DNA from: Vicinamibacteria bacterium | GTDB taxonomy: Bacteria; Acidobacteriota; Vicinamibacteria; Fen-336; JAGNNV01 | DNA: 64,000 bases | Assembly (NCBI GenBank): GCA_019694155.1 | Contig: JAIBCN010000230.1 | Span: forward strand, 3,536 to 67,535 | Reading direction: 5' to 3' | Shown: positions 10,401-30,330 of the stretch, one piece after another | Numbering within the stretch: position 1 is the stretch's first letter | How the letters are laid out: every line of letters begins with the position of its first letter | Notes under the pieces: generated by a model | Told to the model about the DNA's origin: nothing | The model's database searches: none | What the model saw: the letters and a program-made list of their open reading frames with translations, nothing else | Made by a program: the position numbers and the translations under genes

Positions 10401-13400
10401 CGACTACGCGATCTTTCCGAACAACTCCGGCACCATTCAGATTTACGAGGGGGGGGTGCCGCGGGGCGCCTTCGGAAGCTACGTGTCGAGTGACGTGCTG
10501 CGCGTCGAAGTCGAGAACGGGGTGGTGAAGTACAAGAAGAACGGCGCCCTCCTGTATGCGAGCGGCATCGCTCCCCGATACCCGCTGTTGGTGGACACAT
10601 CGCTTGCGATCAAGGGAGCCAACTTCGCCAACGTGATGATCTCAGGGGCGCTGGCTGATGTCAGTGTGGCGCCCGTGACGTTCAGTATCCCTGCCGGGGA
10701 CTACACCGAGCCGCAGGTGGTGACGCTCAACGCACCCACACTTGGCGCGGCGATCTACTACACGACCAATGGCGCGGATCCGACCACGAGCGATACACCG
10801 ATAGCGAGCGGGGCGACGGTGTCGGTCACGGGCACCATGACCCTCAAGGCCAGGGCTTTCCTGGCCGGCCTGTTTGCGAGCCCCACCACGGCCGCGCGCT
10901 ACACCATCGGCCTTGGCTCAACCACCGAGGCGGCCGCCTGGACGAACACCGTGAATGTGACCGCGACGGGGAACTCGATCACCAAGACCTCCGGGGGCTC
11001 ATCGGGTTTCGATGCCGGGGCAGTATCGACCCGGGCGATCTACTCGACGGATGGATATGTCGAACTCTCGGCTGGCACGGCTTTGAGCGGCGTTCGCTAT
11101 GCCGGACTGAGCAACGGCGACACGGATGTTTCGTACGGCGACATCGACTACGCCTTCTGCCCCGCGGGATCAAACGGCCTGCAGATCTGCGAGGGAGGCG
11201 TGGTGCGAGGCACCTTCGGATCCTACCTGGCAACCGATACCCTGCGAGTGGGGGTCGAGCAGGGCGTCGTCACGTACCGAAAGAACGGTGCTTTCCTGTA
11301 CGCGAGCCCTATCCCGCCCGCCTATCCGCTCCTGGTCGACACGACGCTCTACTATCTCTCTCACTCGATCTCGAACGTCTTCATCTCTGGCGCACTCGTT
11401 GACTCGCGGCTGCCCGCGCCCACAGCCGACCCCGCGGCCGGCGCATACGTGCCTCCCGTCAACGTCAGCCTCACGACCGTACCCGGCGCCACGATTCGCT
11501 ACACCACGGATGGCTCGACGCCGACCAGCGCCTCACCCCTCTATGGAGGGACGCCGATCGTCCTCGGAGCATCGACTTCAATCAAGGCAATCGCGGACGC
11601 CCCTGGCTACCTGACGAGCCCGGTCATGACCGCCGCGTACGTGGCTTTGGCTGCGACCCCGACGATCACGCCGAATGGCGGGGCCTTCATGGACTCGGTC
11701 CCCGTCACCCTGGCGACGGCCACTTCCGGCGCGACGGTCCGTTACACGTTGGACGGAACCGAGCCGACGACGGCATCGGTCGCATATTCCACTCCCCTTC
11801 TCCTTGTGTCCACGGCAACCCTCATGGCGAAGGCGTTCCACACCACGCTGGCGCCGAGCAGTACCGCGACGGCATTGTTCACGATAGCCCCAACCCCGCC
11901 GACGCTCTCTCCTGGGAGTGGAACCTACACGACGAGCGTCAGCGTGGCGATGAGCGGGCCGGCGGGGGCGTCCATCTATTACACCACCGACGGAAGCACG
12001 CCGACGCTACTTTCCACCCCGTATGCCGGCGCCGTTGTTCTCACGGAAACGACGACGATCAAAGCAGCAGCGTTCCTGGCTGGAGGGCAGAGCAGCGCCG
12101 TATCTACGGGCGTTTACAGCATCAAGGTGGCGGATCCGGTGTTGAGCCCGGCGTCTGGAAGGTGGTACACGCAGCAGACAATCGGGGTGACCACCGCGAC
12201 GCCTGGGGCGACGATCTACTACACGACGGATGGTACAGAGCCGACGACGAGTTCTGCCACGGTCGCCGGCACCGGCCAGCTGCTGATCGACCGAAGCATG
12301 GCAGTCAAGTTCAAGGCCTTCAAGGCAAACACCCAGCCATCGGCTACAGTGCATGCGAGTTACCTGATCACCGGCCAGATGGCGGCCGGCGACTACCACA
12401 CCCTCGCCCTGAAGGCCGATCGCACGGTGTGGGCCTGGGGTACGAACAACTACGGCCAGGTAGGCGATGGGTCCGCCACCGGCACGGTCCGGTCGAGTCC
12501 GATTCAGATAACGGCCCTGAGTGACATCGTCGAGATCGCCGCGGGCCGCTACTCGTCATACGCTCTCAAGGCCGACGGCACGGTCTGGGCCTGGGGATAC
12601 AACGTGTCCGGCGAGTTGGGAGATGGGAGCAACACCAATCGCTACCTGCCGGTTCAGGTGTCCGGGCTCACGGGCGTCCAGGCCATTGGCGCCGGGGGCT
12701 CGCATGGGTTGGCCGTCCTCTCGGACGGCACCGTGCGCACCTGGGGCCTCAACAACTACGGCCAGTTGGGACGTGGGAACAGCACGAATTCCAATGTTCC
12801 CGTGACCGCTACCGGGCTCGGCAGCGTGCGATCCGTGACGGGAGGCGACTCGCACAGCCTGGCGCTGAGAACGGACGGAACGGTTGCAGGATGGGGCTGG
12901 GGGGGGCTGGGGCAGCTTGGCAACGGAGGACAGAACAGCAATGTGCCGGTCACCCTGTCGGGCGTTGTGGCCACAGCCCTGGCCGCCAATGGGCACTCCT
13001 CGTTTGCCATAGTGGGCGCCACTCGACAACTGAAGGCCTGGGGCTTGAACAGCAACGGCCAGCTGGGCGATGGATCCACAACGAACCGCCTCACGCCGGT
13101 GCTGATCACATCGAACGTCCGCGCGGTGGCCGCGGGCGGAAGCCACATGGCGATGGTGGGCTCGGACGGACGGCTTCAGGGGTCGGGGAACAATGGCCTT
13201 CGTCAGCTCGGAGACGCGACAACGCTGAGCCGGACTTTACCCACCCGCTCGCGCGTCAGCAGGTTTGTCGTGACCCTAGCAGAGGGTTACTACCACTCGC
13301 TGGCCGTGGCCCCTGACGGTGCGGTCTGGGGGACGGGCAACAACATCAACGCGCAGTTGGGGCTCGGGAACAGCGTCTCGCCCGTCCTTCCCACGATGAT

Positions 13401-13782
13401 TCCTGCGTTCTCTCTGTTCAATGCAACCGAACTCCAGCAGGACCTCGACAATGACGGCCTGAACCTGTTCGAGGAGTTCATGTTCGGAACGGACCCGCTT
13501 CTGGGAGACACCAACGGCAACGGGCTGTCGGATGGGGCGGAGTGTGCCCTGGGATTCGACGCGACCGCTCTGGACAGTGATGGAGACGGACTCACGAACG
13601 ACGCGGAGGTCGTTGCCGGAACGAACCCCTTCTCCGCGGACACCGACGGCGATGGGTACGCCGATGGAGTGGACCAGCTTCCGCTCGACAGCAGCCAACA
13701 CACGTTGTCCCCGACGCCCGGCGACACAACGCCGCCCGTGATCACGCTCATCAAGCCCACTGGGGCGATATCCATTCCGTAG
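7402..13782 (+). CDS. giant secreted multi-repeat surface protein (8 chitobiase/hexosaminidase-C-like domains, 7-blade RCC1 propeller, thrombospondin-3-like Ca-binding repeats)
   Basis: ATG 7402 is preceded by a GGAGGG Shine-Dalgarno and a signal peptide follows.
- Six copies of an unrecognised ~150-aa module (W.N.G...GA.STR.I.S.DGYVEF...GLS.GD.DGG..D.DYA...).
- Eight copies of the GATIYYTTDGTEPT signature (CHB_HEX_C-like).
- Seven RCC1 blades (..H.LAL..DGTVWAWG.N.YGQLG.G).
- C-terminal D.DNDG / D.DGDG Ca-binding repeats. Confidence 0.8.
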   Translation: MGASRFGAGVLCVRGSRRFRGVRAVTLAVGSWLVSGAPAVAQDAVRWQRPEGVEVGPGTVARAAGASKSGATSAQFITSGSGYASFTANEAAVARALGLAQTPLNDLPSIKFGIQLGSDGSVAIVEDGVPKPPIGTYGTGDQFTVAVEGASVVYRQNAVALYTSSLAPVYPLFAQVVLQENGSLGSCVMGGNLGEWAEWTNVGAHVAAAPGSLAREPFSPVALEGATSTRGITSGGGFVEFRLNSPTNYIYTGLSHGDTDGGAADIDFSFRIWSTSLTVIENGVTRGSFGTAGINDVLRIGVENGSIVYRKNGTVLYTSLTAPQFPLTIDSSVNAGSASAASVTLSGALSDVAAPPVSMSPSGGAYPSSQSVTLTSAPGQTIYYTLDGTEPGVMSPSVASGGAITVDSSARLRARTISSGLWPGTVRSAFYSIGAPPITEVVEWTNIGANVSALAGSISRDPNVGSPSVSEGAASTRGINSPDGYVEFRTGGYSSLGLSYGDNGGDASDVDYAVRFWGSGFYITENGTSLGYFGSTVAGDVFRVGVENGVVTYRKNGTLVYTSRIGPRFPLLVDASMHPAAGNATAVALSGHLVDTATAAVQMAPGGGAFGEAQSVTLTSGTGGATVRYTLDGSEPGPTSPSVANGGSVVVPSTGWLRARAFAPEMWPSASRRAFFAIGTAATTEVVEWANVGPNLSVQAGAVWRSPNVGSPSLNEGAVSTRAINSPDGYVEFKAGGYGYLGLSYGDADGGANDVDYAIQFWASGFYITENGVSRGYFGSLAAGDIVRVAVESGNVVYRRNGAQVYASGVTPRFPLLVDVSMHPAAGNATGVTISGHLVDVATLPPSFSLLPGDYATGQAVTVTDATPGAIIYYTTNGADPTTNDAVVANGGIVTIADSATLKARAFAPGLFASRVSSARYTIGLTKAIEAVTWTNIVNAGVSGNSIYKATSGAASDGGGVSRRAITSTDGYMEFTAGTPWGNRGAGLSFGDTDRNLADIDYAIFPNNSGTIQIYEGGVPRGAFGSYVSSDVLRVEVENGVVKYKKNGALLYASGIAPRYPLLVDTSLAIKGANFANVMISGALADVSVAPVTFSIPAGDYTEPQVVTLNAPTLGAAIYYTTNGADPTTSDTPIASGATVSVTGTMTLKARAFLAGLFASPTTAARYTIGLGSTTEAAAWTNTVNVTATGNSITKTSGGSSGFDAGAVSTRAIYSTDGYVELSAGTALSGVRYAGLSNGDTDVSYGDIDYAFCPAGSNGLQICEGGVVRGTFGSYLATDTLRVGVEQGVVTYRKNGAFLYASPIPPAYPLLVDTTLYYLSHSISNVFISGALVDSRLPAPTADPAAGAYVPPVNVSLTTVPGATIRYTTDGSTPTSASPLYGGTPIVLGASTSIKAIADAPGYLTSPVMTAAYVALAATPTITPNGGAFMDSVPVTLATATSGATVRYTLDGTEPTTASVAYSTPLLLVSTATLMAKAFHTTLAPSSTATALFTIAPTPPTLSPGSGTYTTSVSVAMSGPAGASIYYTTDGSTPTLLSTPYAGAVVLTETTTIKAAAFLAGGQSSAVSTGVYSIKVADPVLSPASGRWYTQQTIGVTTATPGATIYYTTDGTEPTTSSATVAGTGQLLIDRSMAVKFKAFKANTQPSATVHASYLITGQMAAGDYHTLALKADRTVWAWGTNNYGQVGDGSATGTVRSSPIQITALSDIVEIAAGRYSSYALKADGTVWAWGYNVSGELGDGSNTNRYLPVQVSGLTGVQAIGAGGSHGLAVLSDGTVRTWGLNNYGQLGRGNSTNSNVPVTATGLGSVRSVTGGDSHSLALRTDGTVAGWGWGGLGQLGNGGQNSNVPVTLSGVVATALAANGHSSFAIVGATRQLKAWGLNSNGQLGDGSTTNRLTPVLITSNVRAVAAGGSHMAMVGSDGRLQGSGNNGLRQLGDATTLSRTLPTRSRVSRFVVTLAEGYYHSLAVAPDGAVWGTGNNINAQLGLGNSVSPVLPTMIPAFSLFNATELQQDLDNDGLNLFEEFMFGTDPLLGDTNGNGLSDGAECALGFDATALDSDGDGLTNDAEVVAGTNPFSADTDGDGYADGVDQLPLDSSQHTLSPTPGDTTPPVITLIKPTGAISIP
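7984..12375 (+). repeat. intragenic tandem domain-repeat region (approx. 5 X-modules + 8 CHB_HEX_C-like modules; about 50-70% aa identity between copies)
   Basis: Periodic recurrence of VVEWTN.G and IYYTTDG motifs in the translated giant ORF. Confidence 0.6.
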
Positions 13783-13800: not shown

Positions 13801-16800
13801 ATGCTGAAACGAACGAGAGTTCTCTCTGCCTTGGTCCTAGCCAGCGCGCTGTCGTTGGCTCCGGCAGACGAGGTAGCCGCGCAAATCCAGGTGGACTGTA
13901 CGGTTGCGCCAATGTTCACGCCCAGCCCGAACTATTGCCTTGGTGTTCAATACGTGTTCCCACCGAACGCCTGTGGGTGCTCCAATCGGCTCTTCGCCAC
14001 GTCGTGCGGTGGGGGTGCGATTACGGGGACAACGCAGGGCGGCGTGGCCGGGTGTCTCCTTTCTTTGGCTTGCAACATCGTTGAAACGGAGACGCCCTGC
14101 AACGGCGTCCTTGAGCCCACGCGTCCTCCGAAGACGCCGAAGGTGCCCTGTCTGGATTGCGGTGAGCCCGTCAACGTGACGACGGGGACGATGTACTTCA
14201 CCCACCGCGACGCCACCATCGGACGCCTCTCGTTCACGCGTACCTTCAGCACGCAGCGATTGTCGGCAAATCGCTATGGGATGTTTGGGCCCGGCTGGAA
14301 CACCGACTTCGAAAAGCGGCTGAGGAGTCTGGGAACCGGCGTTCTCGAGTACCGCGACGCCGATGGCGAGCCCACGTATTTTCAGGATCGAGACCTCGAT
14401 GGGAACTTCGAACAGTATGTTCCTTTCGGAAAGGACTCTTGGATTCTGGACACCGGTGTGGGCTACCAGCTGGTGCGCCGCGCGGGCGGGCACGAAGACT
14501 ACTCGACCACCGGCGTGCTCCTTGCGGAGACGGACGCAGCGGGAACCACGACGACGTACGCCCGTGACGGCAGCGCCCGGCTGACTTCGGTGACCAGAGA
14601 GGGCCGATCGTTCACCCTCACCTATTCGGGCGCCAACCTCAAGCCCGCCACCCTTCAGGGACCGGGCGGCGAGACGCTTGCGACCTATACCTACGAAACG
14701 GCGTCGGGCCGACTTGCCGCGGTTGACTATCCGGAGAGCGCGGGCTATCGGTACACCTACACCTCGGACGGCAAGGTGAGCTTCGTTGACGACGCCGACG
14801 GACGGCCCAGTGAGGCTCACGAGTACGACGCGCAGGGGCGTGCCACCACCTCGGAGATCGGCGACGGCCGGCAGAAGCTCACCTTCTCATATGACACAGT
14901 GAACAAGAAGACGACCGTCACCGACGCGCTCGGGCGACAAACGATCTACGAGTTCCAACTCGTGAAGCACGCGCAGGTATTGAAGAAGCTCATAGGGCCA
15001 TGCGCCGGCGCATGCGGACCGGCGGATGAGACGCGCGAGTGGACGTATGACGCCAGCACCGGGACACTGACGACGATGAAGGACCAGGCGGGAAAGATCT
15101 GGAGCTACACCTATGATCCGGTGACCCTGGACATGCTGACGGAGACCGATCCCCTGGCGCAGGTCACGACCTATTCCTATGACGCGCAAGGGCGCATGCT
15201 CACGCGAACTGGGCCGGACGGAGCGGTCACGACCTACGTTCAGAGCGACGCTGGGCCGACCAGCATCACCCAGAAAGTGGCGGCTTCACCGCTGGTCACC
15301 CGAACGACGGCGATTGCGTACTACGCCACGGCGGATGCCAAAAACGGAAAGGTCCACACGATCCAGGATCCCCGGGGGAAGGTGACCACCATGGACTACG
15401 ACGCCACCAAGGGAGACCTCCTGTCGGTCACGGATCCGCTCGGCCACGCGACCACATTCGGCTACGACGAGTCGCCGAGCCCCGCTGGGAGGGGCTTGCG
15501 GACGAGTGTGACCGATGCCCTCGGCCATGTCACCAAGACGGTGTACGAAGGCCGCAACCGGGTGAAGAAAGTAGTCAATCACGACAACACGTTCACCGAG
15601 TTCGGATATGACGCGGCCGGACGCAGGTCGACGGTGACGGATCCCATGGGTCGGGTGACCCGATACATCTACGATCGATACGGGCGTCTCGATACGGTGG
15701 TGGATCCGATGAATCAGACCACGCGTTATTCATATGACCTGATGGGGAATCTGCTCACGCTCACGGATGCGAAGAGCCAGACGACGACGTTCGAGTATGA
15801 CAGCCACGACCGGGTGAAGAAGACAATCTACCCAGGCGGGGCGTATGAGACGTTCACGTACGACTCGCGGGGGAGGCTTGAGACGATGGTCGACCGGAAG
15901 AACGTGACCACGACCTACGCCTACGACGACCTCGGGAGGCTCTTGGGGAAGACGTTCTCGAACGACCCATCGAATACGCCGCCGTTCAGCTACACCTACG
16001 ATGCGGCGGGAAGGATGCTCACGGCCGCGAACGGGACGGATACCCTCACGTGGACCTACAACCTGGCGGGGGAGTTGCTGAGCGAGCAGAGCGTGAAGAA
16101 CGCCAGCACGGTCGCCTACACCTACGACGACGGCGGCAACCGGCTGTCGGTGAGCCTGGACGGGACGCTCTTCGTCACGTACGCCTACGACGACGCGTCG
16201 AGGCTCACGACGATCACCCGCGGATCGAACGTGTTCGGCTTCGCCTACGACAACGCAAACCGAAGAACCAGCATGAGTTATCCAAACGGAGTCGATACGA
16301 CGTACACGTACGACACGCTCAATCGCCTCACGAACCTCGCGGCGACGAAGACGAGCACCGGAACGCCGATCACGAACTTCGGCTACCAGTACGACGCCGC
16401 GGGCAACCGGACGCAGAAGTCCACCCTCGACTACACGGAGGACTATGGGTACGACCCCCTCTACCGCCTGACCCGCGCGGACCGCACGAACCCAGGCGCC
16501 ACCCCGCCGAATCAGTGGACGTGGAGCTACGACGCGGTGGGCAACCGGACGAGCGCCCAGAAGGACAACGAGGCGACCACGTCCACCCACAACGAGAAGA
16601 ACCAGCTGCTACAGACGAGCGGAGGGGGGAAGATGCTCTGGCGCGGGGTCCTGGACGAGCCCGGGACCGCGACGTTCAACGCGGCCTCTGCGTCGATCAA
16701 CGGTCAGCCCGCGAGGATGCTTGCGGGGAACGTGTTCGAAGCGACGCTGGACCTGCCCGCGGGAGCGAACACGGTGACGATTCAAGCGCAGGACGGGAGC

Positions 16801-17919
16801 GGGAATGTGTCGAGCAAGAGCTACTCGGTGAACGTGCTCGGCGTGCCCGCGACCTACACCTACGACGCGAACGGCAACCTCGCGACGAAGACGGAAGGCG
16901 CGGACGCGTGGGCCTATCAGTGGAACGCTCTGAATCAGCTGACCGCCGTCTCGAAGAACGGCGTGATGGTCGCGTCCTACGGATATGACCCCGACGGGCG
17001 GCGTGTTGAGAAGACCGGTCCCGGACGGCTTCTCGCATGGGTCTACGATGGCGAGGATGTCCTGCGCGAGACCTCGACGTCTAGCGGCGTCAATATCTAC
17101 CAATGGCATGTGCACGGCCACGGTATAGACGAACCGCTCGCGACGGAGACGCTCAACGGAGTGTCTTACAGACACGGTGATGCCATCAACGCGGACCGAC
17201 GTCTAACCGATGCAAGCGGCAATGTCCTCGGCGGAGTGTCTACGGACCCCTGGGGCAACGGGGACTCGTCCTCTATGGGACCTTATGGCTTCGGAGGGAG
17301 AGAATGGGATCCTGAGGCACAGATGCATTTCTTCAGAGCTCGGTGGTACGACCCAAAGATCGGGCGATTTATCTCAGAAGACCCAATTGGATCGAGGGGC
17401 GGCTCTAACCTATTCTCCTACGTCGATTCGTCACCCCCGAACTTCGTTGATTCGCTCGGCCTATTCAAGATGAGCGGCTTTCCGCGGGACGGAGTTGCGG
17501 TATCAAAAGTAATCGACGCGATGGCGGCCGTTCGCAGGAGACTGACTGAACAGCCCTGTTGTACGGCCGACGCGCCTGACATCCTGAACTACATGGAGAA
17601 CGTCGACGTCGACTTCAAGCCCGACCTAAACATCAAGCGACAGAAGAAAGGGCAGAAACTGGCCTGTGCAACTGCTCAAGACACGAATTTCTTCTTCTTC
17701 AAGGTCCGAAAGATCCACTTCGCCCCCGAATCGTTCGGCCCAGAATGCGCGGCGCTCTCTCTGGAATGCATGCTCGTGCATGAGTACACCCATTTCGTGA
17801 CGGGCTATTCCGATACTGACCCTCGATATCACGGCCGTGAGTACAAGAATCAATTCACGTGTTTCGGCTGCGGCGACGGCACGGTCCCGCCGGGCGAGGG
17901 ACCGCGGGGGAAAGAATGA
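13801..17919 (+). CDS. RHS/YD-repeat polymorphic toxin (Sec signal, no PAAR) with HExxH metallopeptidase-like C-terminal domain
   Basis: Signal peptide followed by a Cys-rich region and many YD repeats (TYTYDANGNL, YAYDDLGRL). The RHS core ends in RARWYDP..GRFISEDPIG..DSLGL. After the DPxGL boundary comes a ~150-aa lower-GC tip containing LVHEYTHF (HExxH). Confidence 0.85.
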   Translation: MLKRTRVLSALVLASALSLAPADEVAAQIQVDCTVAPMFTPSPNYCLGVQYVFPPNACGCSNRLFATSCGGGAITGTTQGGVAGCLLSLACNIVETETPCNGVLEPTRPPKTPKVPCLDCGEPVNVTTGTMYFTHRDATIGRLSFTRTFSTQRLSANRYGMFGPGWNTDFEKRLRSLGTGVLEYRDADGEPTYFQDRDLDGNFEQYVPFGKDSWILDTGVGYQLVRRAGGHEDYSTTGVLLAETDAAGTTTTYARDGSARLTSVTREGRSFTLTYSGANLKPATLQGPGGETLATYTYETASGRLAAVDYPESAGYRYTYTSDGKVSFVDDADGRPSEAHEYDAQGRATTSEIGDGRQKLTFSYDTVNKKTTVTDALGRQTIYEFQLVKHAQVLKKLIGPCAGACGPADETREWTYDASTGTLTTMKDQAGKIWSYTYDPVTLDMLTETDPLAQVTTYSYDAQGRMLTRTGPDGAVTTYVQSDAGPTSITQKVAASPLVTRTTAIAYYATADAKNGKVHTIQDPRGKVTTMDYDATKGDLLSVTDPLGHATTFGYDESPSPAGRGLRTSVTDALGHVTKTVYEGRNRVKKVVNHDNTFTEFGYDAAGRRSTVTDPMGRVTRYIYDRYGRLDTVVDPMNQTTRYSYDLMGNLLTLTDAKSQTTTFEYDSHDRVKKTIYPGGAYETFTYDSRGRLETMVDRKNVTTTYAYDDLGRLLGKTFSNDPSNTPPFSYTYDAAGRMLTAANGTDTLTWTYNLAGELLSEQSVKNASTVAYTYDDGGNRLSVSLDGTLFVTYAYDDASRLTTITRGSNVFGFAYDNANRRTSMSYPNGVDTTYTYDTLNRLTNLAATKTSTGTPITNFGYQYDAAGNRTQKSTLDYTEDYGYDPLYRLTRADRTNPGATPPNQWTWSYDAVGNRTSAQKDNEATTSTHNEKNQLLQTSGGGKMLWRGVLDEPGTATFNAASASINGQPARMLAGNVFEATLDLPAGANTVTIQAQDGSGNVSSKSYSVNVLGVPATYTYDANGNLATKTEGADAWAYQWNALNQLTAVSKNGVMVASYGYDPDGRRVEKTGPGRLLAWVYDGEDVLRETSTSSGVNIYQWHVHGHGIDEPLATETLNGVSYRHGDAINADRRLTDASGNVLGGVSTDPWGNGDSSSMGPYGFGGREWDPEAQMHFFRARWYDPKIGRFISEDPIGSRGGSNLFSYVDSSPPNFVDSLGLFKMSGFPRDGVAVSKVIDAMAAVRRRLTEQPCCTADAPDILNYMENVDVDFKPDLNIKRQKKGQKLACATAQDTNFFFFKVRKIHFAPESFGPECAALSLECMLVHEYTHFVTGYSDTDPRYHGREYKNQFTCFGCGDGTVPPGEGPRGKE
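16448..16935 (+). repeat. direct repeat (copy 1) shared with orphan rhs cassette at 22451..22935
   Basis: Nucleotide alignment is near-identical across about 480 nt (GGGTACGACCCCCTCTACCGCCTGACCCGCGCGGACCG... through ...GGAAGGCGCGGACGCGTGGG), with a short diverged patch around the two-thirds point. Confidence 0.8.
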
Positions 17920-18353
17920 ACTTTTCAGTGAGATGTCTCGCAATCGCTTTGCTTTTCCTGCCCGCGCCTTCGTCGGCGTTCACCTGCATGCCCATTCGGC
18001 TCCTAGTCGAGGTACCCTCCCCTGAAGCGGGCTGGGCTTTGGACTTCGTCGCGAAGCCCGACCGCAAGACCCTAAAGGTCGCCCGCGAAGATGCGACTTC
18101 CATGACGTACGCGGTCTTCTTCGACACCCTTCGTGTGCGACCAGGCAAGGCGCAGGACTGCTCATGGGAGCCTTCGTCTCTTGTCGTTCGAATTCGTCAC
18201 GAGGATGGGACGGTGCGGGAGGATCAGATTCCATTCCCTCAGGGCTTTGTCCGAATTGAGGGAACCGCCCGGAGCTTCCGAGCGACGCGGCGCGCCTCTC
18301 TCGCTGAAAAACCGCCCGGCCTCAGTAAGGGCCCAGAAACCCCTCGCCGTTGA
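17916..18353 (+). CDS. putative cognate immunity protein for the RHS HExxH toxin (secreted)
   Basis: ATGA overlap with the rhs stop (ATG 17916, TGA 17917-19). Signal peptide [21 protein letters not shown]. 145 aa with no recognisable domain. Confidence 0.5.
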
Positions 18354-18414
18354 AGTGAATCAGATGGGTCGGGGATTCGGCCACCCAAACCTCGGTCTCC
18401 CAGGCGATATCGGT

Positions 18415-18490
18415 CTTCGCGCATCCGGGCGTCCGTGGTCACGGCCCCTCGCGCCTGGAGGCCCGGGGCGGACTAGCGGGGCTACGGCCG
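18415..18490 (+). other. conserved intergenic element, copy 1 (paralogous copy at 20885..20960)
   Basis: About 70 nt, roughly 80-85% identical to copy 2: GCAkCCGGGCGTCCGTGGTC.CG..CC.TCGCGCCTGGAGGC.CGGGGCGG. The CCGGGCG / CGCCUGG potential stem is conserved. Lies 30 nt upstream of gene A. Confidence 0.3.
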
Positions 18491-18520
18491 TAGGAGGGCG
18501 AAAGGGATAGCCATGAGAGG

Positions 18521-19249
18521 GTGCGAACGCAGATGCTCCAACGGCGTCTGGTCTCGATCGAAATGAGCCGATCGAAGCGCAGAGCACGGACCATCCAGCG
18601 AGATCAGGACATCGTGGATCTGCTCCAGCGAAGTGCCGGCGGCGCGGCATCTCTGAGCGATAGAGTCCACTACGACAGAGAGATCCAGCGCCTGGGAGCA
18701 GAGCTTGCCACAGCGAATGAGGCGTTCCAGTCTGACCTCAAGGAAGAGTACCAGCTGCGCTTGCTCGTGGTCGAGGAAGAGGGAAACCTGCTGCTGGACA
18801 TCCGCGCCCTTGAAGACGAGAACTCCCGTCGGGCCGGGCGTCCCACGCACCTTGAGCAGGCACGAGATGCCCTGCGACGACTACCCGAGGTGCCTGTGGA
18901 GCTCATGCACGCCGTCCCTTTTTGGACCGAGACGGACCTCGGATCTCTTCGGCCTCTGCCATCGCCTCACGCCCTGAATCAATATGAAAGATCCGTCGGT
19001 CGGGCCATTGAACGCTTCGGGCTGATGTCGAGTTGCGTGGAAGACTTCATTGAAGCGACCAGACTCAGGGAGTCCTTGGGGCACGTACCGCCAGGGACGG
19101 CTGACAGGGCCAAGGTTGATTTCGCCACCAATCAGGCGCAGATTCGCGTTGGACTGGACCAGATGGCGTTGCTGCCTCCCAGAATGCGAGCGGACCGGGC
19201 AGCCAATCTCGCGAAGCGCGCAGCCCTCGTCGCAGCATTGAAGCTCTGA
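18521..19249 (+). CDS. hypothetical protein (gene A; upstream partner of HEPN-like protein)
   Basis: 242 aa and protein-like, with GC lower than the flanks. Its stop overlaps the start of the next gene (TGATG). Confidence 0.45.
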   Translation: MRTQMLQRRLVSIEMSRSKRRARTIQRDQDIVDLLQRSAGGAASLSDRVHYDREIQRLGAELATANEAFQSDLKEEYQLRLLVVEEEGNLLLDIRALEDENSRRAGRPTHLEQARDALRRLPEVPVELMHAVPFWTETDLGSLRPLPSPHALNQYERSVGRAIERFGLMSSCVEDFIEATRLRESLGHVPPGTADRAKVDFATNQAQIRVGLDQMALLPPRMRADRAANLAKRAALVAALKL

Positions 19250-19914
19250 TGGTGGTCCATCTGCGTCGCCGCGGCCACAGACTCGAAGGGCTGGTCAACC
19301 GGTTCTGTTGGCATATCGAGAAGACCCAGAAGTACGTGACTGTCGTCATGCCTGCGATTAAGCAGCAAGATGATCCGGGTGTCGAGCAGTACCTATTCCA
19401 GTCTCTGGCCTTGATGCTTCACTCCTACATGGAGGACTTTTTCAAGGGTGTCATCAGAACAGCGGCGCCAAATCGCCCGATGGAATTGCGTGAGCATATG
19501 AGCACGTACTATTCCGAGGACATCAAGGGATCTGGAACTCTTCACATTCTTGAGCTCGCCCGGATGGCCGCGAAGCGCGAGGTGTCGTTCGAAAGGAAGG
19601 CCGAACGACTGAAGCGGGTCTTTCGTGTGCTTTTCGACGCTGATCCGTTTTGCGACGCGGAAGCCGAGTCCGACTGCCTCGACCTAGTCGTGGTTCGAAA
19701 CACCATTACGCACGACGGGGCGTGGCCCGATGGAAGAGTCCACCAGAGCCTCTCCCGGAAAGACATCGTCGTCGAAACTACCCTCGTGAACGGGGCGAGC
19801 TTCTACACACTCCAGATTCCGCCGCAGTTCTTTGCGAACGTGCTGGCAGGCCTTGGCAGAAGCGTCCTCGATTTGGACCGGCAGCTCCGAGAACACCCGG
19901 TCTATCGAATATGA
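19249..19914 (+). CDS. HEPN-like domain protein (gene B; RNxxxHxG motif) - candidate RNase toxin / abortive-infection effector
   Basis: 221 aa. LDLVVVRNTITHDGAW matches the HEPN R-[NHQ]-x3-H-x-G signature. GC is markedly lower than the locus average. Translationally coupled to gene A. Confidence 0.4.
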   Translation: MVVHLRRRGHRLEGLVNRFCWHIEKTQKYVTVVMPAIKQQDDPGVEQYLFQSLALMLHSYMEDFFKGVIRTAAPNRPMELREHMSTYYSEDIKGSGTLHILELARMAAKREVSFERKAERLKRVFRVLFDADPFCDAEAESDCLDLVVVRNTITHDGAWPDGRVHQSLSRKDIVVETTLVNGASFYTLQIPPQFFANVLAGLGRSVLDLDRQLREHPVYRI

Positions 19915-19968: not shown

Positions 19969-20667
19969 GTGATGAGCCCAGATGCACCTCTGAATAGTCG
20001 CGACGTTGTCCTCCTGCCGTACCTGCGCCTTGTTGGCAGGCTCTCCGTGGGTCCTTGGGAAGTGATTCCGCGGCCCGAGCTGACGCGGGCTGACACCACG
20101 ACCCAGCAGGTGTTCGAGGTGGTGCCCAAGTATCTCGACCTCTATGCCATCCCGAAGCATCAACCAAGAGAGAAGTGGGGTTGCCTTGTGAAGAAGAAGG
20201 CCGTTCGCTTTGGCGACTTCGTGGAGCGGCACGAGCTGGTGCCAGTACACCATGCGATTCTGGTTGGTGTGCTCGCCAGCAACCCAGAAGCGAACGCGAG
20301 GAACCCCGGTCGCTCAATGTCGACGTCAGAGAGCTGCATGATGTTCGGCCACCCGATCAGCGAGGAAGGTCGAGTCTCGGTCGAAAACGGGGCGATGTTC
20401 CACCAGGTTGTCGTTGCCGGGCTCAGGCTGGGCGACGATGACGGCTACGTCAGCCACCCCACGTCGCTCTGCGCTCCTTGGGACGGCAACCAGGTTGACG
20501 AAGCTCTTGCAGCCGCGACGCATACTGCTTTGACGCTGGGCACGGAAGGCGCCCGGCGCCTGTCGACCGCGATTGAATGGCTCCAAACGGTCTGGATGAA
20601 TACCGAGGCTGTAAGTTGGGACGTGCGCGTCATGGCACTGAAGGCAGCCTGGGTGAGAGCCACGTGA
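19969..20667 (+). CDS. hypothetical protein (gene C)
   Basis: 232 aa with coding-like codon bias and lower GC than the flanks. No recognisable domain. Confidence 0.4.
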   Translation: MMSPDAPLNSRDVVLLPYLRLVGRLSVGPWEVIPRPELTRADTTTQQVFEVVPKYLDLYAIPKHQPREKWGCLVKKKAVRFGDFVERHELVPVHHAILVGVLASNPEANARNPGRSMSTSESCMMFGHPISEEGRVSVENGAMFHQVVVAGLRLGDDDGYVSHPTSLCAPWDGNQVDEALAAATHTALTLGTEGARRLSTAIEWLQTVWMNTEAVSWDVRVMALKAAWVRAT

Positions 20668-20884
20668 TGATCGCTCAAAGGCGGTTGTTGGAAGTCATTC
20701 GGAAGCTGGTCTAGACGGGCGCGATGATCGGAACGTCCGCCACCGCGACCTGGGCCAGCAGGGCAAGCTGTGCCTGCACCCGTTCTCTGGAGATTGCCCC
20801 GTGTTGAGTAGCGGGTGGGTCGGTGAGCGAGTGGTCGCACACGCGTGGTACGGGGGCGCGCCGTCGTTTGTGGCCTTGCACATG

Positions 20885-20960
20885 CGGGCTGTCGAGCCTC
20901 GCGCAGCCGGGCGTCCGTGGTCGCGATCCATCGCGCCTGGAGGCTCGGGGCGGCTCGGCG
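20885..20960 (+). other. conserved intergenic element, copy 2 (see 18415..18490)
   Basis: Aligned to copy 1. Located 220 nt downstream of gene C and 220 nt upstream of gene D. Confidence 0.3.
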
Positions 20961-21176
20961 GGGCTGTGACTGACGGCGTGCGGCTGAGTTGCCTTTCCGA
21001 GGACGCGAGTGGCCTGCTCGGGATGCTGGACTTCACTACGCGCCGCGTCAAGGCTGCTCCGCTGCGCTCCGCACTTTTTTGCTTCGCAAAAAAGCCTTCG
21101 GGCCTGGACACGGCCCTACGTGAAGTCGTGATGAGAGGGCGCAGGCCACTTTCGGCCTGCGGAAAGGCAACCTCTC

Positions 21177-21716
21177 ATGTACACGTCAACCACACAGCCC
21201 CGCAACGCAGGCCCCGAGCCAACGCCGCGGCTTTCGGGTTCTCCCTCGTTCGGCCTTCGCGTCCGCGTGGCACTCGATACCACGCAGCAGTACCTGTTCG
21301 GCAACGATGGTCCGTCGGTCCTCACTCGTCTGGCCGAGGAACTCTGCATTCAGATGGCACGCATCGTCGTCTGCGACTTTCGCATTCACTCTCGGCTGAA
21401 CCGCACGGTTCCGGCAGTTCTGCGGAACGTCCGTCTGAGCTTCTGGTCCTGCGCTCGGCGGGCGGCACTCGATACCTCGGCAGCTCTTGCGGCGGGCGCC
21501 AAGCGTCGCGTGGTCCAGTCGGATCTGGCTATCCAGGCGGCGAATCTCGCTCTGCGCATCGCGGATCTCTGCGAGAAGGCGGAGCAGTCGGTTCGTTCCG
21601 AGAAGCAGATCGTGGAGAACTACGATCGGGCTCGGCGTTCGGAGCTTTCGGCGATGCATCGCGATCGACGGGAGCAGGAAGCTCGGCGTCGTGCCGAAGC
21701 CGAGGAGTCGCTCTAA
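21177..21716 (+). CDS. hypothetical protein (gene D), translationally coupled to Avd-like gene
   Basis: 179 aa. The frame-0 translation is protein-like, whereas the overlapping long frame (ORF 20801..22231) is R/S/G-rich junk upstream of 21716. Stop overlaps the next ATG (TAATG). Confidence 0.4.
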   Translation: MYTSTTQPRNAGPEPTPRLSGSPSFGLRVRVALDTTQQYLFGNDGPSVLTRLAEELCIQMARIVVCDFRIHSRLNRTVPAVLRNVRLSFWSCARRAALDTSAALAAGAKRRVVQSDLAIQAANLALRIADLCEKAEQSVRSEKQIVENYDRARRSELSAMHRDRREQEARRRAEAEESL

Positions 21717-22231
21717 TGAGCGCTGAACTCTCACTTCAGCAGGCCGGGGCTTCCGCCCCGGCCGTTTCCGCTTCGCAGTCGGCCGCTGGGCCTGGTGCCG
21801 AGCTTGCAGCAGTCCTCGCCGGTTCGGCCGCGGCGGAGTCCGCCGCTCGCGAGGACTCGATCCTCCTCGACGCTGAGAAGCTCGAGGTCTACGCGTTGGC
21901 CTTGGAGCTTCACGCATTCGCCGCATCGAAGGTCCCCACGCTGAGCCGTGTCCTCAAGGACCAGCTTGAGCGTGCCAGCCTCAGCGTGGTCTTGAACATC
22001 GCAGAGGGCGGGGGCCGTCGAAGCCGCAAGGACAAGTCGCGGCACTACACGTACGCGCGAGGCAGCGCCACGGAGGTTGCTGCCTGCTTCGACGTGCTCA
22101 AGATCCGGAAGCTCGCTCCGGCGTCCGAGTGCGCTCGTGGCCGAACCCTCGCGCTGCGCGTGGTCCAGATGCTCACGAAGCTCTGCGCATCACTTCAGCC
22201 GAAGTCCACCGAAGCGCAGGAGGCGGCTTGA
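21716..22231 (+). CDS. four-helix-bundle protein (23S rRNA intervening-sequence / Avd-like family)
   Basis: C-terminal 120 aa (LEVYALALELHAFA..LKDQLERASLSVVLNIAEGGGRRSRKDKSRHYTYARGSATEVAACFDVLKIRKL) matches the four-helix-bundle, DGR-Avd-like family. The N-terminal Ala/Ser-rich extension leaves the start uncertain. Confidence 0.55.
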   Translation: MSAELSLQQAGASAPAVSASQSAAGPGAELAAVLAGSAAAESAAREDSILLDAEKLEVYALALELHAFAASKVPTLSRVLKDQLERASLSVVLNIAEGGGRRSRKDKSRHYTYARGSATEVAACFDVLKIRKLAPASECARGRTLALRVVQMLTKLCASLQPKSTEAQEAA

Positions 22232-22431
22232 GCCTCACGCAGTCGTGTTTCAACGCTCGTCAGGCTAAGGCAGGACTGCGTTCGTCTCTCAAGAAGGTGG
22301 CGGTCGGCCAGCCCTTTTCGTGGGCCGAACGCGTTTGTCGTCAATCCGGCCTTCGGCCGGAACGGAGACGGACGGGACACGGGGCACGTTGCACGGCCGA
22401 GGTGGTGCGGCTGGTGACCTCGCCTTCGGCT

Positions 22432-24223: not shown

Positions 24224-24508
24224 ATTGTGCGTCGAGCGGTCCCGCGTCGGTTGACCTAGAGTGAGGCGCAATGACTGCCAAGGCGAAGAAACCCGAGCCA
24301 CTCTTCAACGTTGGTGATCCAGGGATTCTCCGGACGGGGAACTGACAAATGGGAGTTGTAGGGCGAATCCGTACGCCCCATTAGGCGAGTTTGGACCCGC
24401 AGAGACCAGACGCCGCGACGCTCTCCGCCGACCTGTTTGCCTTCTGAGCCGAGTTCTGGCTGCTCGAGCGCAGCTCCGCCCAGGGTCACTCGTTCGGAGA
24501 CCGTCGGC

Positions 24509-25735
24509 CTATGCGGGCTGGAGGTAGGGAAATCGACGCGCGACCCGATCGAGCCACGCGACGCGCATTGGCGGCGGTCCGTGATTGATGCCGGGTCTTG
24601 CGCGTGGCGGCTGGATGGCGGTCGCGGCCTTCGGTTGGACTCCGGCCAAACGCTCAGCCGGAGTGGCGCCATCGAGAGAGTAGATCGGTCGCTGGTAGGT
24701 GTAGTAGTTCAGGGCCGCGGCGAGCCGCTCTTCGAAGTCTGACAGCGTGAGCGGCTGCGCGAGGGGAAGGCCCATCAGCCAATCGAGAGTTCTCCAGAAG
24801 CGCTCGATGAGCCCGGTGATCGTGGTCCTGCCCGGGCTGCCGAGGCGTATCCGCGAACCCAGGCGCTTGGCTGCCATTCTGAAGGCGCCCTTGAACTCCG
24901 GTCCTCCGTCTATGGCGACGTACCGCGGCCTTCCCCAGGCTGCGGCTACGCGCTTCAGCAGCCTTGCTGCCGCGTCCGCGGTCGGAGGCGTCGCCGAGGC
25001 GTGGATGCCGAGTGGAGCCTGGGAGTAGGCGTCAAGGACCCCAGTGACCCAGAACTTCCGGAAGCCGAGGAAGCTCTTCACCTCGTGAGAGTCGAGGATG
25101 AAGACATGGCCAACGAACGTCGCCTTGAGGGGCATGCGGCTCGAGGAATCCGGAAGGTCGGGTGAGGCTTCCGTGGGTTCGCTCTTGAGGACGCTCTCCA
25201 CGTAGCTCTTCGAGACCTTCCATCCACCACGCGCGACGTGGGCCGCGATCTGATGAGCGCGTCCGAGGTGGAGGCGTTCCGCCAGGCGCACCAGCGCGCG
25301 GACGACATCGGCGTATCGGCGGATGGGCGGGTCGGGTTGGATGTCGGGGCCGACGGTTTGCCGCGCGGGATCGGCGGCGTCTTCCCACCGTGTGAAGGTG
25401 GTGGGAGTGACGACGAACTGAGCGGCGGCCTCCTCGATCGACCAGCCCATTGTCTGACGCAACTGGAGGGCCTTGAAGCGCGCAGGGCCGGAGTAATGGG
25501 GACGCTTCTTGGGAGCGATCTTCCGAAGCCGCGTCTGGAACGTCTCGACCATCTCGGTGAGGATTCCGTTCCGGGTTTCGAGTTCCTTGATGCGGGCAAG
25601 GGCCATCGTGAGCGCATCATCAGAGAGGCGGAGGCGCCGGAGTTGAGCGTCGAGGGCACAGCCCAGGATGCGAACGGCTCTCAAAGTCGCCTTGGACGCA
25701 ATCTTCTCGGCAGCCTCGTGAATGCGCAGGTTCAT
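24509..25735 (-). CDS. DDE transposase (integrase-core rve domain; IS481/IS3-superfamily-like)
   Basis: Start MNLRIHEAAEKIA. N-terminal HTH with coiled coil, and C-terminal rve/rve_3-like YTYQRPIYSLDGATPAERL. Confidence 0.7.
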   Translation of the reverse strand: MNLRIHEAAEKIASKATLRAVRILGCALDAQLRRLRLSDDALTMALARIKELETRNGILTEMVETFQTRLRKIAPKKRPHYSGPARFKALQLRQTMGWSIEEAAAQFVVTPTTFTRWEDAADPARQTVGPDIQPDPPIRRYADVVRALVRLAERLHLGRAHQIAAHVARGGWKVSKSYVESVLKSEPTEASPDLPDSSSRMPLKATFVGHVFILDSHEVKSFLGFRKFWVTGVLDAYSQAPLGIHASATPPTADAAARLLKRVAAAWGRPRYVAIDGGPEFKGAFRMAAKRLGSRIRLGSPGRTTITGLIERFWRTLDWLMGLPLAQPLTLSDFEERLAAALNYYTYQRPIYSLDGATPAERLAGVQPKAATAIQPPRARPGINHGPPPMRVAWLDRVARRFPYLQPA

Positions 25736-26122
25736 GAGGCGAGCATGGCGGACCGAGCGTGCCTGGCCCTCAGGCGCGGTACCGCGGGGCGCGAGGACCC
25801 CGCGGGCGGAGGCCAAAGCACCGTTCCCGAACGGAGTGGGGCCCAAGGCTCCTCTGAGTCAAAGCGGGGCGGTCAGCCCCGCTCCATTCATTGAAGACGA
25901 CATTGGGCCCCACGTATGTGAGGGAACGCCCGGGTGCTTTGGCCGCAGCATGACCACGCGGCCGCGGTGTTCACGGATGGCCCGCGGTCGGCGCGGTGGC
26001 TTTCGCGGGATTGCTTCGTCGCACTACCGACGGAATGGCTCCTCGCAATGACGGGGGGTGCCTCTCCCCGAAGCGCGGAGGAGGCTGGGCGGTGCGGTTC
26101 GCAATGACGTGGGCGGGGCGTT

Positions 26123-26900
26123 TCACCTCACCGAGGAGCGTCGCTCGCGAAAGTGCTCGCGCCATTCGGCGGAGCGGTAGCGGATGACCTTGAGCAGCGC
26201 GAGATCGACTCGCTTCGCGTCGCCGAGGGCTTCGGCGTCGTAGAGGTCGAAGCCGTCGGGCTGGAAGGAGAGGGTCAGGTACTGGCCGTATTGAACCGCG
26301 TTCTGCATGTCCTCGAAGCTCGGGACGTCGCCGCCGGTCCAGTTGCCGTTCGCGTCGTGGGGGGCGTGGGTGTGCCAGCCTCCCACGTAGCGGCCATGCC
26401 AGTCGGTGCTGGTGATGAGGGCCAGTTGTTCCTCGGGGCCGAGGGAGTAGGTGGGGGCGGCGTTTTGGGCCACGGTGAGAAGGGCGCGCCTCACTTCCTC
26501 TGCGCTGCCGGGTGAGCCGAGGCGGAAGCGCGCCACTGCGACTTTGATGAGGCCGTGGGTGTCGACCTTGGCGACTTCGGCCGCGCGGGTTTCGCACAGC
26601 GAGGCGATGGCTTTGGGGTCTCCGGCGACTTTGACGAGGTCCTGGACCGTCGACCACCGCGGGTCGCGGGCCTCGACTAGGCGCAGCTCCTTGTCGATGG
26701 TCGCTTCGCCTCCGGTTTCCGGGGTGAGCCACTTGGGACCGATCCGCACGCCGCGCTCGATCATGGCCTCGAAGAGCGCGCGGATCCGATCGACGGAGGC
26801 GGGTGAGAGAGCGGCCGCGCGGAGCTGGCGTGGGTGATGGGGTTGTTCTTCGGGGCGGCGAGGCCATGCCACTGGTCGAGGCGCGAGAGGGTTCGCGCCA
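26123..26900 (-). pseudogene. fragment (C-terminal ~260 aa) paralogous to secreted protein gene 29076..30146, fused in frame to a truncated transposase
   Basis: About 88% nt identity to 29121..29880. Homology breaks, with a frameshift, near 26860-26900. Confidence 0.5.
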
Positions 26901-27039
26901 TGGTGGCTGAGACTTTGATCGCACCGGCGGCCTGGCGGGATTGCTTCGTCGGGCGGTCTACCGAACCCTCCTCGCAATGATGGAGGAGTGTCTCGTTGAT
27001 TCCTTGCCCCGACCGACATCGCGACCGATGGCATGGGCG

Positions 27040-27787
27040 GGCTCGCCGAGGCGTGGATGCCGAGTGGAGCCTGCGAGTAGGCGTCGAAAACGCCAGTGAT
27101 GAAGAACTTCCGGAAGCCGAGGAAGTTCTTCACCTCGTGAGAGTCGAGGATGAAGACATGGCCAACGAACCTGGCCTTGAGGGGCATGCGGCTCGATGAA
27201 TCGGGCAGGTCGGGCGAGGCCTCCTCGGGCTCGCTTCTGAGCACGCTCTCGACGTAGCTCTTGGAGATCTTCCAGCCGCCACGCGCGACGTGAGCGGCGA
27301 TCTGGTGGGCGCGTCTCATGCCGAGGCGCTCGGCAAGGCGCACCAAATTGCGAACAACGTCGGCATACCGCCGGATGGGCGGGTCGGTTTGGATGTCGGG
27401 TCCCACGGTTTGTCGAGCGGGGTCGGCGGCGTCCTCCCACCGCGTGAAGGTGGTGGGAGTGACGAGGAATTGAGCGGCGGCTTCCTCGATCGACCAGCCC
27501 ATAGTCTGGCGCAGCTGGAGAGCCCTGAACCGCGCGGGGCCGGAGTAGTGGGGACGCTTCTTGGGAGCGATCTTCCGAAGCCGCGTCTGGAACGTCTCGA
27601 CCATCTCGGTGAGGATTCCGTTCCGGGCTTCGAGTTCCTTGATTCGGGCGACGGCCTGCGTGAGCGCGTCATCGGAGATGCGGAGGCGACGGAGTTGTGA
27701 ATCGAGGACCCGGGCGAGGATCCGAACGGCTCCGAGTGTCGCTCTTGTGGCGATGGCCTCGGCCGCATCGTGCAGGCGCAGGTTCAT
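27040..27787 (-). pseudogene. truncated transposase paralog (N-terminal ~250 aa only; catalytic rve core missing)
   Basis: Start MNLRLHDAAEAIA. About 80-85% nt identity to 24985..25735 and ends abruptly at about 27040. Part of chimeric ORF 26123..27931. Confidence 0.55.
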
Positions 27788-27878
27788 GAGGAGAGCACCC
27801 CCTTTTGCAGGTTCCCGAAGGGGATCGGCTCGCAAGGAAGACCGAGCGCATTTCGCCAAGGACGGAATGGCTCCGCCC

Positions 27879-29024: not shown

Positions 29025-29075
29025 GGCCGGAATCGTACTATGAAAATCCGTATCTTAGCTACGGATTTTCATACA

Positions 29076-30146: not shown

Positions 30147-30330
30147 GCCTCATCCTAGAAGACGGAGGCTGGCCACGCCGGATTGCCCCGAGGCGGGGCA
30201 GGCTTGTCCTTGTCCGGGCGGGCGAGAGAGTGCGGGCTGGAGGGCCCAAGTTGTTCGGAAGGAGACGCTTAGAGCTCCCGGATCCGCCTTCGACTACGGC
30301 GGCACAGGCCTTGAACCACAGCCGGCCGTC

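Follow-up and report, generated by a model that had tools for sequence, protein, structure and literature searches.

The A-B gene pair in an RHS locus

The DNA analyzed here, referred to below as the window, is a 64,000-nucleotide stretch of contig JAIBCN010000230.1 from the metagenome-assembled genome of a soil bacterium in the Vicinamibacteria. Between a full RHS gene (RHS_repeat, E = 9e-70; DUF6531) and an orphan RHS C-terminal open reading frame (ORF), the window carries two adjacent genes, designated A and B, that are annotated as the hypothetical proteins K1Y01_20200 and K1Y01_20205 (Table 1). A first-pass annotation, made from the sequence alone, had described the two as an overlapping cassette with a HEPN-like protein in second position. 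Both ORFs and the junction between them are present as described. The junction reads CTC TGA TGG, so that base 19249 ends the stop codon of A and opens that of the B start, an arrangement consistent with translational coupling. There are three candidate starts for gene A: GTG 18521, ATG 18533, which is the NCBI call (P0004, 238 amino acids [aa]), and ATG 18563, which is equivalent to the start methionine in the closest homolog, P0005. Neither a sigma-70-like promoter nor an intrinsic terminator was found around the cassette, and the region upstream of A gave no convincing operator palindrome. A low guanine-plus-cytosine (GC) content had been ascribed to both genes; this holds for B, at 56.8% versus 66.5% for the window, but not for A, at 61.4% versus 61.7% for the RHS gene.

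Table 1. Features of the A-B region, with positions in the window
Feature	Position	Strand	Remarks
RHS gene, full length	13801-17919
91-nt direct repeat, copy 1	18410..18500	+	Just 5' of A; partial copy of the leader; repeat family D7
Gene A	18521..19249	+	242 aa if the start is GTG 18521
TGATG junction	19247..19251	+	Stop TGA of A (19247-19249) and start ATG of B (19249-19251), one common base
Gene B	19249..19914	+	221 aa, start ATG; HEPN-domain protein, predicted metal-independent RNase effector
Ex3[KR]-type acidic motif, codons E62-D-F-F-K66	19432..19446	+	Predicted helix 43-75; second conserved HEPN active-site element
Rx4H catalytic signature, codons R150-N151-T-I-T-H155	19696..19713	+	C-terminal end of predicted helix 137-154; R150 at 19696-19698, H155 at 19711-19713
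ORF C	19969..20667	+	232 aa; Shine-Dalgarno-like GGAGAGG before ATG 19972; 55 nt after B
Conserved non-coding leader	20812..21176	+	365 nt; right-hand boundary of the variable slot; ~91-92% identical to the related loci L009 and L021
91-nt direct repeat, copy 2	20892-20982	+	Within the leader
ORF179	21177-21716		Substitutions by codon position 2/1/9 and 3/1/13
PF05635 (23S_rRNA_IVP) four-helix-bundle gene	21716-22231		TAATG-coupled to ORF179; substitutions 9/9/42
Orphan RHS C-terminal ORF	22129..23868

Gene B has the sequence signature of a HEPN ribonuclease

The HEPN-type motif to which the first-pass annotation had drawn attention, VVVRNTITHDGAW, is present in B. By itself such a motif does not exceed chance: when the window is translated in all six frames, RNxxxHxG turns up twice, one of the two in a spurious frame, and the looser pattern R[NDHQ]xxxH turns up 67 times. 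The significance of the motif in B thus derives from its conservation in homologs and not from its presence. A word-indexed search for B returned only two relatives, at 52 to 53% identity. An exhaustive profile search of 1.84 billion cluster representatives gave 83 proteins at an E value of ≤1e-3, 44 of them at ≤1e-10, and no relatives were found in GTDB representative genomes, IMG/VR, PLSDB plasmids, or INPHARED phages. The B family is rare and exclusively metagenomic.

An alignment of 52 near-full-length members, ranging from 16 to 52% identity to B, bore out the conservation of the arginine and histidine, whose absence from homologs had been named as one of two findings that would refute a HEPN assignment. 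R150 and H155, at the x4 spacing, are the sole invariant columns (52/52). Residue 151 is polar in 50 of the 52 sequences (N in 37, Q in 8, and H in 5), position 145, D in B, is D or E in 51, and position 62 is E or D in 47; position 66 is K or R in only 26. The HEPN signature is defined by Rx4-6H at the end of helix 3, a polar residue (N, D, or H) after the arginine, and an upstream Ex3[KR] in helix 2 (PMC3710099). B contains the Rx4-6H, the polar residue, and the upstream acidic residue. The AlphaFold2 model of B, built on a multiple-sequence alignment of only 3 sequences, is a helical bundle (predicted local distance difference test [pLDDT], 76; predicted template-modeling score, 0.76) with a helical insert at residues 77 to 129. 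In the model the motif closes helix 137-154 and is followed by a low-confidence loop, a β-hairpin at residues 173 to 189, and a final helix; a motif at a helix end followed by a loop matches the placement of Rx4-6H given in PMC3710099. A Foldseek search of the PDB with the model yielded no significant match (best E value, 0.77). B is very probably a HEPN RNase, with its activity a prediction.

The only curated family that B and its relatives match recurrently is the Pfam family HEPN_RiboL-PSP (PF18735), to which residues 39 to 155 of B align over profile positions 19 to 158 of 191. Nine of the 52 relatives match it at an E value of <0.01, the best at 2.9e-5. No member of the B family that was tested reaches the gathering score; among five outlying members scanned separately, the highest value was that of P0036, at 27.6 bits versus the cutoff of 28.4. 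NCBIfam, PHROGs, and PADLOC (at E ≤ 1) hold no model that matches B, and a PADLOC scan of the 52 relatives gave scattered single matches to unrelated models, with E values of 0.0015 to 0.01. The HepT-like family PF01934 does not match B and matches one distant relative, P0079, weakly (E = 0.018), and neither Abi_2 (PF07751) nor AbiV (PF18728) matches B or its family. From these profile comparisons B is filed as an uncatalogued branch of the HEPN superfamily near PF18735, not as a PF18735 member.

Gene A encodes a helical protein of a previously undescribed family

Gene A had been reported to lack a recognizable domain, and searches of Pfam, NCBIfam, PADLOC, and PHROGs gave no domain or family match. 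Library scans detected no ribbon-helix-helix (RHH), helix-turn-helix (HTH), or AbrB domain, and A shows neither a Pfam nucleotidyltransferase match nor a GSx10DxD-type motif. Only four homologs were found among 5.8 billion clustered proteins, profile query included. The predicted structure is an all-α helical bundle (pLDDT, 87), preceded by a basic N-terminal tail (MSRSKRRAR), and each partner protein has a strongly basic stretch of 20 residues at its start, with a net charge of +2.5 to +6.6. The closest homologs of A share the motifs HYD(K/R) and RRAGRPT. In an alignment that includes distant partners, the only positions still invariant are M1, three leucines, and R219, a pattern that favors a binding or scaffolding role over an enzymatic one. 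A is an all-helical protein outside known families and represents a previously undescribed partner family. The first-pass annotation had put the whole module forward as a candidate novel one; the word novel applies to gene A and to the pairing, but not to B, which is an uncatalogued branch of a well-known superfamily.

The A-B dyad is conserved across lineages and contexts

A homolog of A lies directly 5' of a B relative in four other lineages, and the dyad is thus kept in at least five. The nearest B relatives are P0002 (53% identity; loci L001-L008 and L011-L013), with a 33% identical A partner across a 6-nt gap, and P0003 (52%; L009), also with a 33% identical A partner but with an 11-nt overlap. 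P0006 (38%; L014 and L015) has a 23% identical partner, related to the L001-type A at an E value of 1e-10, with a 4-nt overlap. For P0010 (27%; L019), which overlaps its upstream gene by 1 nt, the partner was recognized with a hidden Markov model (HMM) at an E value of 2e-19. Two further B relatives have upstream genes of another kind. P0008 (L016) lies 3 nt after a gene for a 249-aa partner that has the same basic N terminus and is helical but is unalignable with A; comparison of the two by hhalign and HMMs gave no homology. On the P0007 contig, a 180-aa gene stands 5' of the HEPN gene with a 4-nt overlap. Compared lineage by lineage, A and B are 33% versus 52%, 23% versus 38%, and about 17 to 24% versus 27% identical to their counterparts in the window. 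A therefore diverges faster than B yet in step with it, which points to coinheritance.

The surroundings of the pair vary widely. Non-RHS contexts include a Metallophos gene with a KAP NTPase; an integrase, a PIN toxin-antitoxin pair, a MobA relaxase, and an HNH gene; a convergent HEPN_AbiV gene; and an SF1-helicase/MTES_1575 nuclease with a Type I hsdM. These varied settings suggest that A-B is autonomous mobile cargo. They also support the earlier proposal of a stand-alone pair, since the same dyad is found in unrelated contexts, rich in defense genes and mobile genetic elements, that have no RHS gene. The layout as a whole is that of a generic type II-like toxin-antitoxin operon: a coupled bicistron, coinherited, on mobile or defense DNA.

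HEPN genes recur in a variable slot of RHS loci

Three related loci, namely the window, L009, and L021, are alike at both flanks: to the left they share an RHS core, and to the right a further conserved unit. Positions 20804-22277 of the window are 90.6% identical to L021, and positions 20812-21469 are 92.5% identical to L009. Between these flanks each locus differs in RHS C-terminal (CT) toxin, immunity gene, and cargo. The cargo is A-B followed by ORF C in the window, a diverged A-B in L009, and a 307-aa HEPN protein in L021 (2557-3480; metagenome contig Ga0315271_10016272), which has the motif RNPAIH and matches PF05168 at 25.3 bits versus a threshold of 22. The slot in the three related loci thus holds HEPN genes of two different families. 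When the B-family profile was compared with the L021 protein by hhalign, the RNxxxH motifs were aligned, at a score that was not significant.

This recurrence bears on whether the pair belongs to the RHS system itself, as an orphan toxin/immunity pair, an extra immunity set, or an addiction module that stabilizes a swapped RHS-CT/immunity cassette. The pairs in the window and in L009 both follow an RHS-CT and immunity gene and precede the same conserved leader, the corresponding slot of L021 is occupied by another HEPN gene, and a variable block between conserved flanks is what exchange by homologous recombination would be expected to leave. Even so, we regard an RHS-bound function as highly improbable. 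No RHS_repeat match or other RHS fragment was found in A or B, as the first-pass annotation had noted, whereas the flanking RHS ORFs match strongly; nor do the two genes have an RHS core/DPxGL junction. The gene order is reversed relative to toxin-then-immunity. Of the six lineages with an upstream partner on an informative contig, only two (the window and L009) are RHS loci, and most A-B or B-family loci are without any RHS. The CT toxins of the window and L009 are unrelated to each other, as are the immunity genes, so A-B is not tied to a particular RHS toxin. The RHS orphan/immunity module was rejected because A and B contain no RHS fragment and the pair is present in non-RHS loci. The best reading of the locus is that A-B is lodged there as cargo, mechanistically outside RHS toxin delivery.

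A proposed two-gene conflict module and its alternatives

With somewhat more belief than doubt, we read A-B as a self-contained conflict module of two genes that moves by horizontal transfer and is of the toxin-antitoxin or abortive-infection type, with a partner that is not a minimal nucleotidyltransferase (MNT). B would act as a metal-independent HEPN endoribonuclease with an active site formed by R150, N151, and H155, probably together with E62 and probably completed by dimerization as in other HEPN enzymes. A, a fast-evolving nonenzymatic helical bundle, would be translated first from the common transcript, bind B directly, and keep it inactive. If A were lost, titrated, or displaced, for example when a phage infects the cell or the element disappears from it, B would be free to cleave cellular RNA and bring about growth arrest. 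The RNase activity proposed for B draws on the conserved R/N/H/E signature and the predicted fold. For A, the neutralizing role is suggested by gene order, coupling, coevolution with B, and analogy with MNT-HEPN and ParA-HEPN pairs, in which the order of a 5' partner followed by HEPN was used to assign antitoxin and toxin roles (PMC3710099). The toxicity of B and the binding of A to B are likewise presumed. A HEPN domain of the PF18735 family is present in the validated anti-phage systems PD-T4-2, PD-T4-5, PD-T7-3/DARNA, and ApeA (PMC10952713).

Several observations weigh against a toxin-antitoxin module. B itself scores 16.8 bits against PF18735 (E = 0.0068), below the gathering score of 28.4, and profiles built from 3 and from 52 sequences found nothing meaningful among PDB sequences. 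A-B matches no PADLOC defense model. A is unlike a classical antitoxin, being about 230 aa long, predicted to be well folded, and without an RHH or HTH domain, and the charge complementarity that might be expected between an acidic A and a basic B was tested and is absent. Some distant members of the B family have no A-like partner. P0018 stands alone, directly behind hsdR-hsdM-hsdS in a conjugative element; a second contig has upstream of it a truncated ORF that, judged by eye, may be an HsdS-like C terminus. P0019 lies, likewise without a partner of the A type, within a TIR/NYN/integrase island. The 696-aa protein P0044 is a fusion to an unrelated N-terminal domain of 411 aa, for which hhalign gave no homology to A; its gene has a ThiF/multi-ubiquitin gene pair on one side and a DUF433/DUF5615 gene pair on the other. 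These distant architectures were seen at L022 (2737-8630), L023, L017 (5001-7091), and L024 (2834-4285). Solo and fused genes of this kind suggest that B-type enzymes need not be constitutively toxic and that A could be a sensor or adaptor.

Under that alternative, B would be latent and harmless alone, and A would be a positive regulator or specificity subunit of a two-component anti-phage defense, a scaffold whose basic tail binds nucleic acid and which detects an invader cue or brings B to its RNA target. Besides the partnerless genes next to Type I restriction-modification (R-M) and in the TIR/NYN island, the fusion protein, which resembles sensor-effector Abi proteins, would fit such a role, as would the size and confident fold of A, its conserved basic N-terminal 20 residues, and the missing charge complementarity. 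There is also precedent in latent, ligand-activated HEPN defense proteins such as DARNA/PD-T7-3. We nonetheless think a sensor or adaptor rather unlikely. A partner gene 5' of a HEPN gene with overlapping stop and start is the classic antitoxin-toxin layout; A evolves faster than B and retains no invariant functional residues once distant members are included, which is more typical of a neutralizing binder; and no ligand-binding or NTPase domain is detectable in A.

A role outside conflict appears more improbable still. B might be a housekeeping or regulatory HEPN protein that processes RNA or binds nucleotides, with A as a structural partner, and some HEPN families are indeed noncatalytic or RNA-processing (PMC3710099). 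The full catalytic signature of the B family is, however, strictly conserved, the family is as rare and patchy as the searches described above show, and its fast evolution and mobile-element or defense neighbors are the opposite of a housekeeping pattern.

A-B compared with known HEPN systems

One close parallel to the proposed conflict module is HepT-MntA, a type VII toxin-antitoxin system (PDB 7ae2, 5yep, and 8xdj). As in A-B, the partner gene lies 5' of the HEPN gene with a tight junction, and the HEPN protein is small, stands alone, and has Rx4H, although the RNase role of B is a prediction. The differences lie on both sides. The HepT-MntA partner is an MNT that AMPylates the toxin, whereas A is predicted to be an all-α bundle; with neither a nucleotidyltransferase match nor the motif in A, neutralization by AMPylation is not expected. 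B, for its part, differs from HepT in having no PF01934 match and in its predicted additional β-hairpin and helical insert. RnlA-RnlB and LsoA-LsoB, in which a HEPN RNase with an anti-phage role is held in check by a dedicated nonenzymatic protein, resemble the model proposed for A-B. However, RnlA has three domains and its antitoxin gene is downstream, whereas the partner in A-B is upstream, and RnlAB and LsoAB gave no sequence or structural match to A or B.

PF18735, the Ribo L-PSP-HEPN family of Anantharaman et al. (2013; PMC3710099), has in common with B the Rx4H, the polar residue after the arginine, and the contexts of defense islands or mobile elements. Its typical architecture is an L-PSP fusion or a ParB operon, whereas B is a single-domain protein and neither A nor ORF C has an L-PSP or ParB match. 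The models of PADLOC-DB v2, among them those of PD-T4-2, PD-T4-5, PD-T7-3, ApeA, and AbiD/F/V/U2/J, are not matched by B. DARNA has a C-terminal sensor domain of its own, whereas B is short and single-domain and has a separate upstream partner. The Abi-type HEPN proteins (AbiD/AbiF, which are Abi_2, AbiV, AbiU2, and AbiJ) and those of R-M operons have the same predicted chemistry as B, and distant B members are likewise found directly after a Type I hsdS or next to an AbiV gene, arrangements that have been described for HEPN families (PMC3710099). Abi HEPN genes are mostly single or, as for AbiF, paired with an RNA antitoxin, whereas A-B has a conserved dedicated protein partner. A-B is not a member of the HEPN-MNT, PF18735, Abi_2, or AbiV groups, of the PADLOC systems, or of the RHS orphan modules.

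Implications for HEPN regulation and RHS loci

In the A-B pair, an effector fold that is already known is joined to a partner family not described before. Few effectors are more common in bacterial immunity and toxin-antitoxin systems than HEPN RNases, whose control differs by system, from AMPylation by MNT proteins and RNA antitoxins to the sensing of cyclic oligoadenylates or, in DARNA, of single-stranded DNA. A matches none of these regulators, and A-B could therefore add both a control mechanism and an entry in the catalog of defense systems. Another HEPN dyad in a variable region is unsurprising; what deserves note is the new partner, together with the recurrence of HEPN genes in one RHS slot. 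RHS loci can be hotspots for autonomous conflict modules, here documented in the Vicinamibacteria, within the poorly studied Acidobacteriota. The practical value is modest for a rare and purely metagenomic family, and current understanding is not overturned.

A more far-reaching interpretation, which as a joint claim we consider distinctly unlikely, is that A founds a class of proteinaceous HEPN regulators built as an elongated bundle whose basic tail binds nucleic acid, that A together with B makes up an uncatalogued anti-phage system, and that the RHS slot repeatedly captures unrelated HEPN genes. The slot would then be a feature of Vicinamibacteria-type RHS loci, situated between an RHS-CT/immunity pair on one side and the leader-ORF179-IVP unit on the other. 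If this were true, it would suggest that HEPN RNases and polymorphic-toxin cassettes are functionally linked, for example with HEPN modules as addiction or guard elements.

Slot boundaries and neighboring genes

Substitutions in the leader that bounds the slot on the right show no codon periodicity, and the leader has neither an Rfam match nor a significant fold. A piece of the leader is duplicated 5' of A, and A-B-C is thereby bracketed by direct repeats in the window. The two copies are 77% identical over 91 nt and have an exact 33-nt core that occurs twice in the window versus 0 expected. A structured RNA or recombination hairpin was not indicated, there being no Rfam match and fold z-scores near 0 on both strands, and searches for the repeat in GTDB representative genomes and IMG/VR were negative. 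Recombination may have left it behind as a scar, or it may be a regulatory region that was duplicated. Within the leader, at 21068-21095 and in surroundings of 66% GC, lies an A/T-rich perfect hairpin, CTTTTTTGC-TTC-GCAAAAAAG. Positions 21100-21200 of the window are almost free of substitutions between the three loci.

ORF C lies within the repeat-bounded segment and gave no match in Pfam, NCBIfam, PADLOC, PHROGs, or PLSDB. It is missing after B in L009 and L001 and is absent from other A-B loci, and for this reason it is not counted in the module. To the right of the leader, ORF179 is a real gene as judged from its substitutions by codon position; the ORF179 region corresponds to 3307-4217 in L009 and 3912-4963 in L021. 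The L009 homolog keeps the N-terminal ~97 aa and then continues into an unrelated Cys-rich C terminus, followed by a different 134-aa ORF. ORF179 appears to follow the pattern of a small polymorphic protein, with a constant N terminus, a variable C terminus, and a cognate partner.

One distant member of the B family, the one in the TIR/NYN/integrase island, is preceded by a 222-aa gene that has an RNKVAFH motif of its own; comparison of the B-family profile with the 222-aa neighbor in L024 by hhalign was not significant.

The C-terminal tip of the RHS protein, encoded within positions 17401-18353, contains an HExxH-like motif, MLVHEYTHF, which suggests a metallopeptidase-type toxin. An ORF at 17859-18353 overlaps the 3' end of the RHS gene and has an internal methionine followed by a hydrophobic signal- or lipoprotein-like stretch; from these features it is likely to encode the immunity protein. 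Neither the tip nor this ORF matches Pfam. Downstream of the RHS locus, positions 24337-30150 of the minus strand hold an rve-family transposase-like gene (24509-25846), with 84% DNA identity to the L009 copy, followed by direct repeats spaced by ~3 kb (26148/29110, 24984/27036, and 26828/29791), and an AAA_14/DUF4143 ATPase gene (27879-29024). This arrangement indicates that several insertion sequence-like copies directly follow the RHS locus. On the upstream side, a gene at 7402-13782 is separated from the RHS gene by a gap of only 19 nt. Its 2126-aa product has eight CHB_HEX_C_1/Fn3_assoc repeats, an RCC1-like propeller, and a TSP3 repeat and may serve the RHS toxin as a surface or delivery partner.

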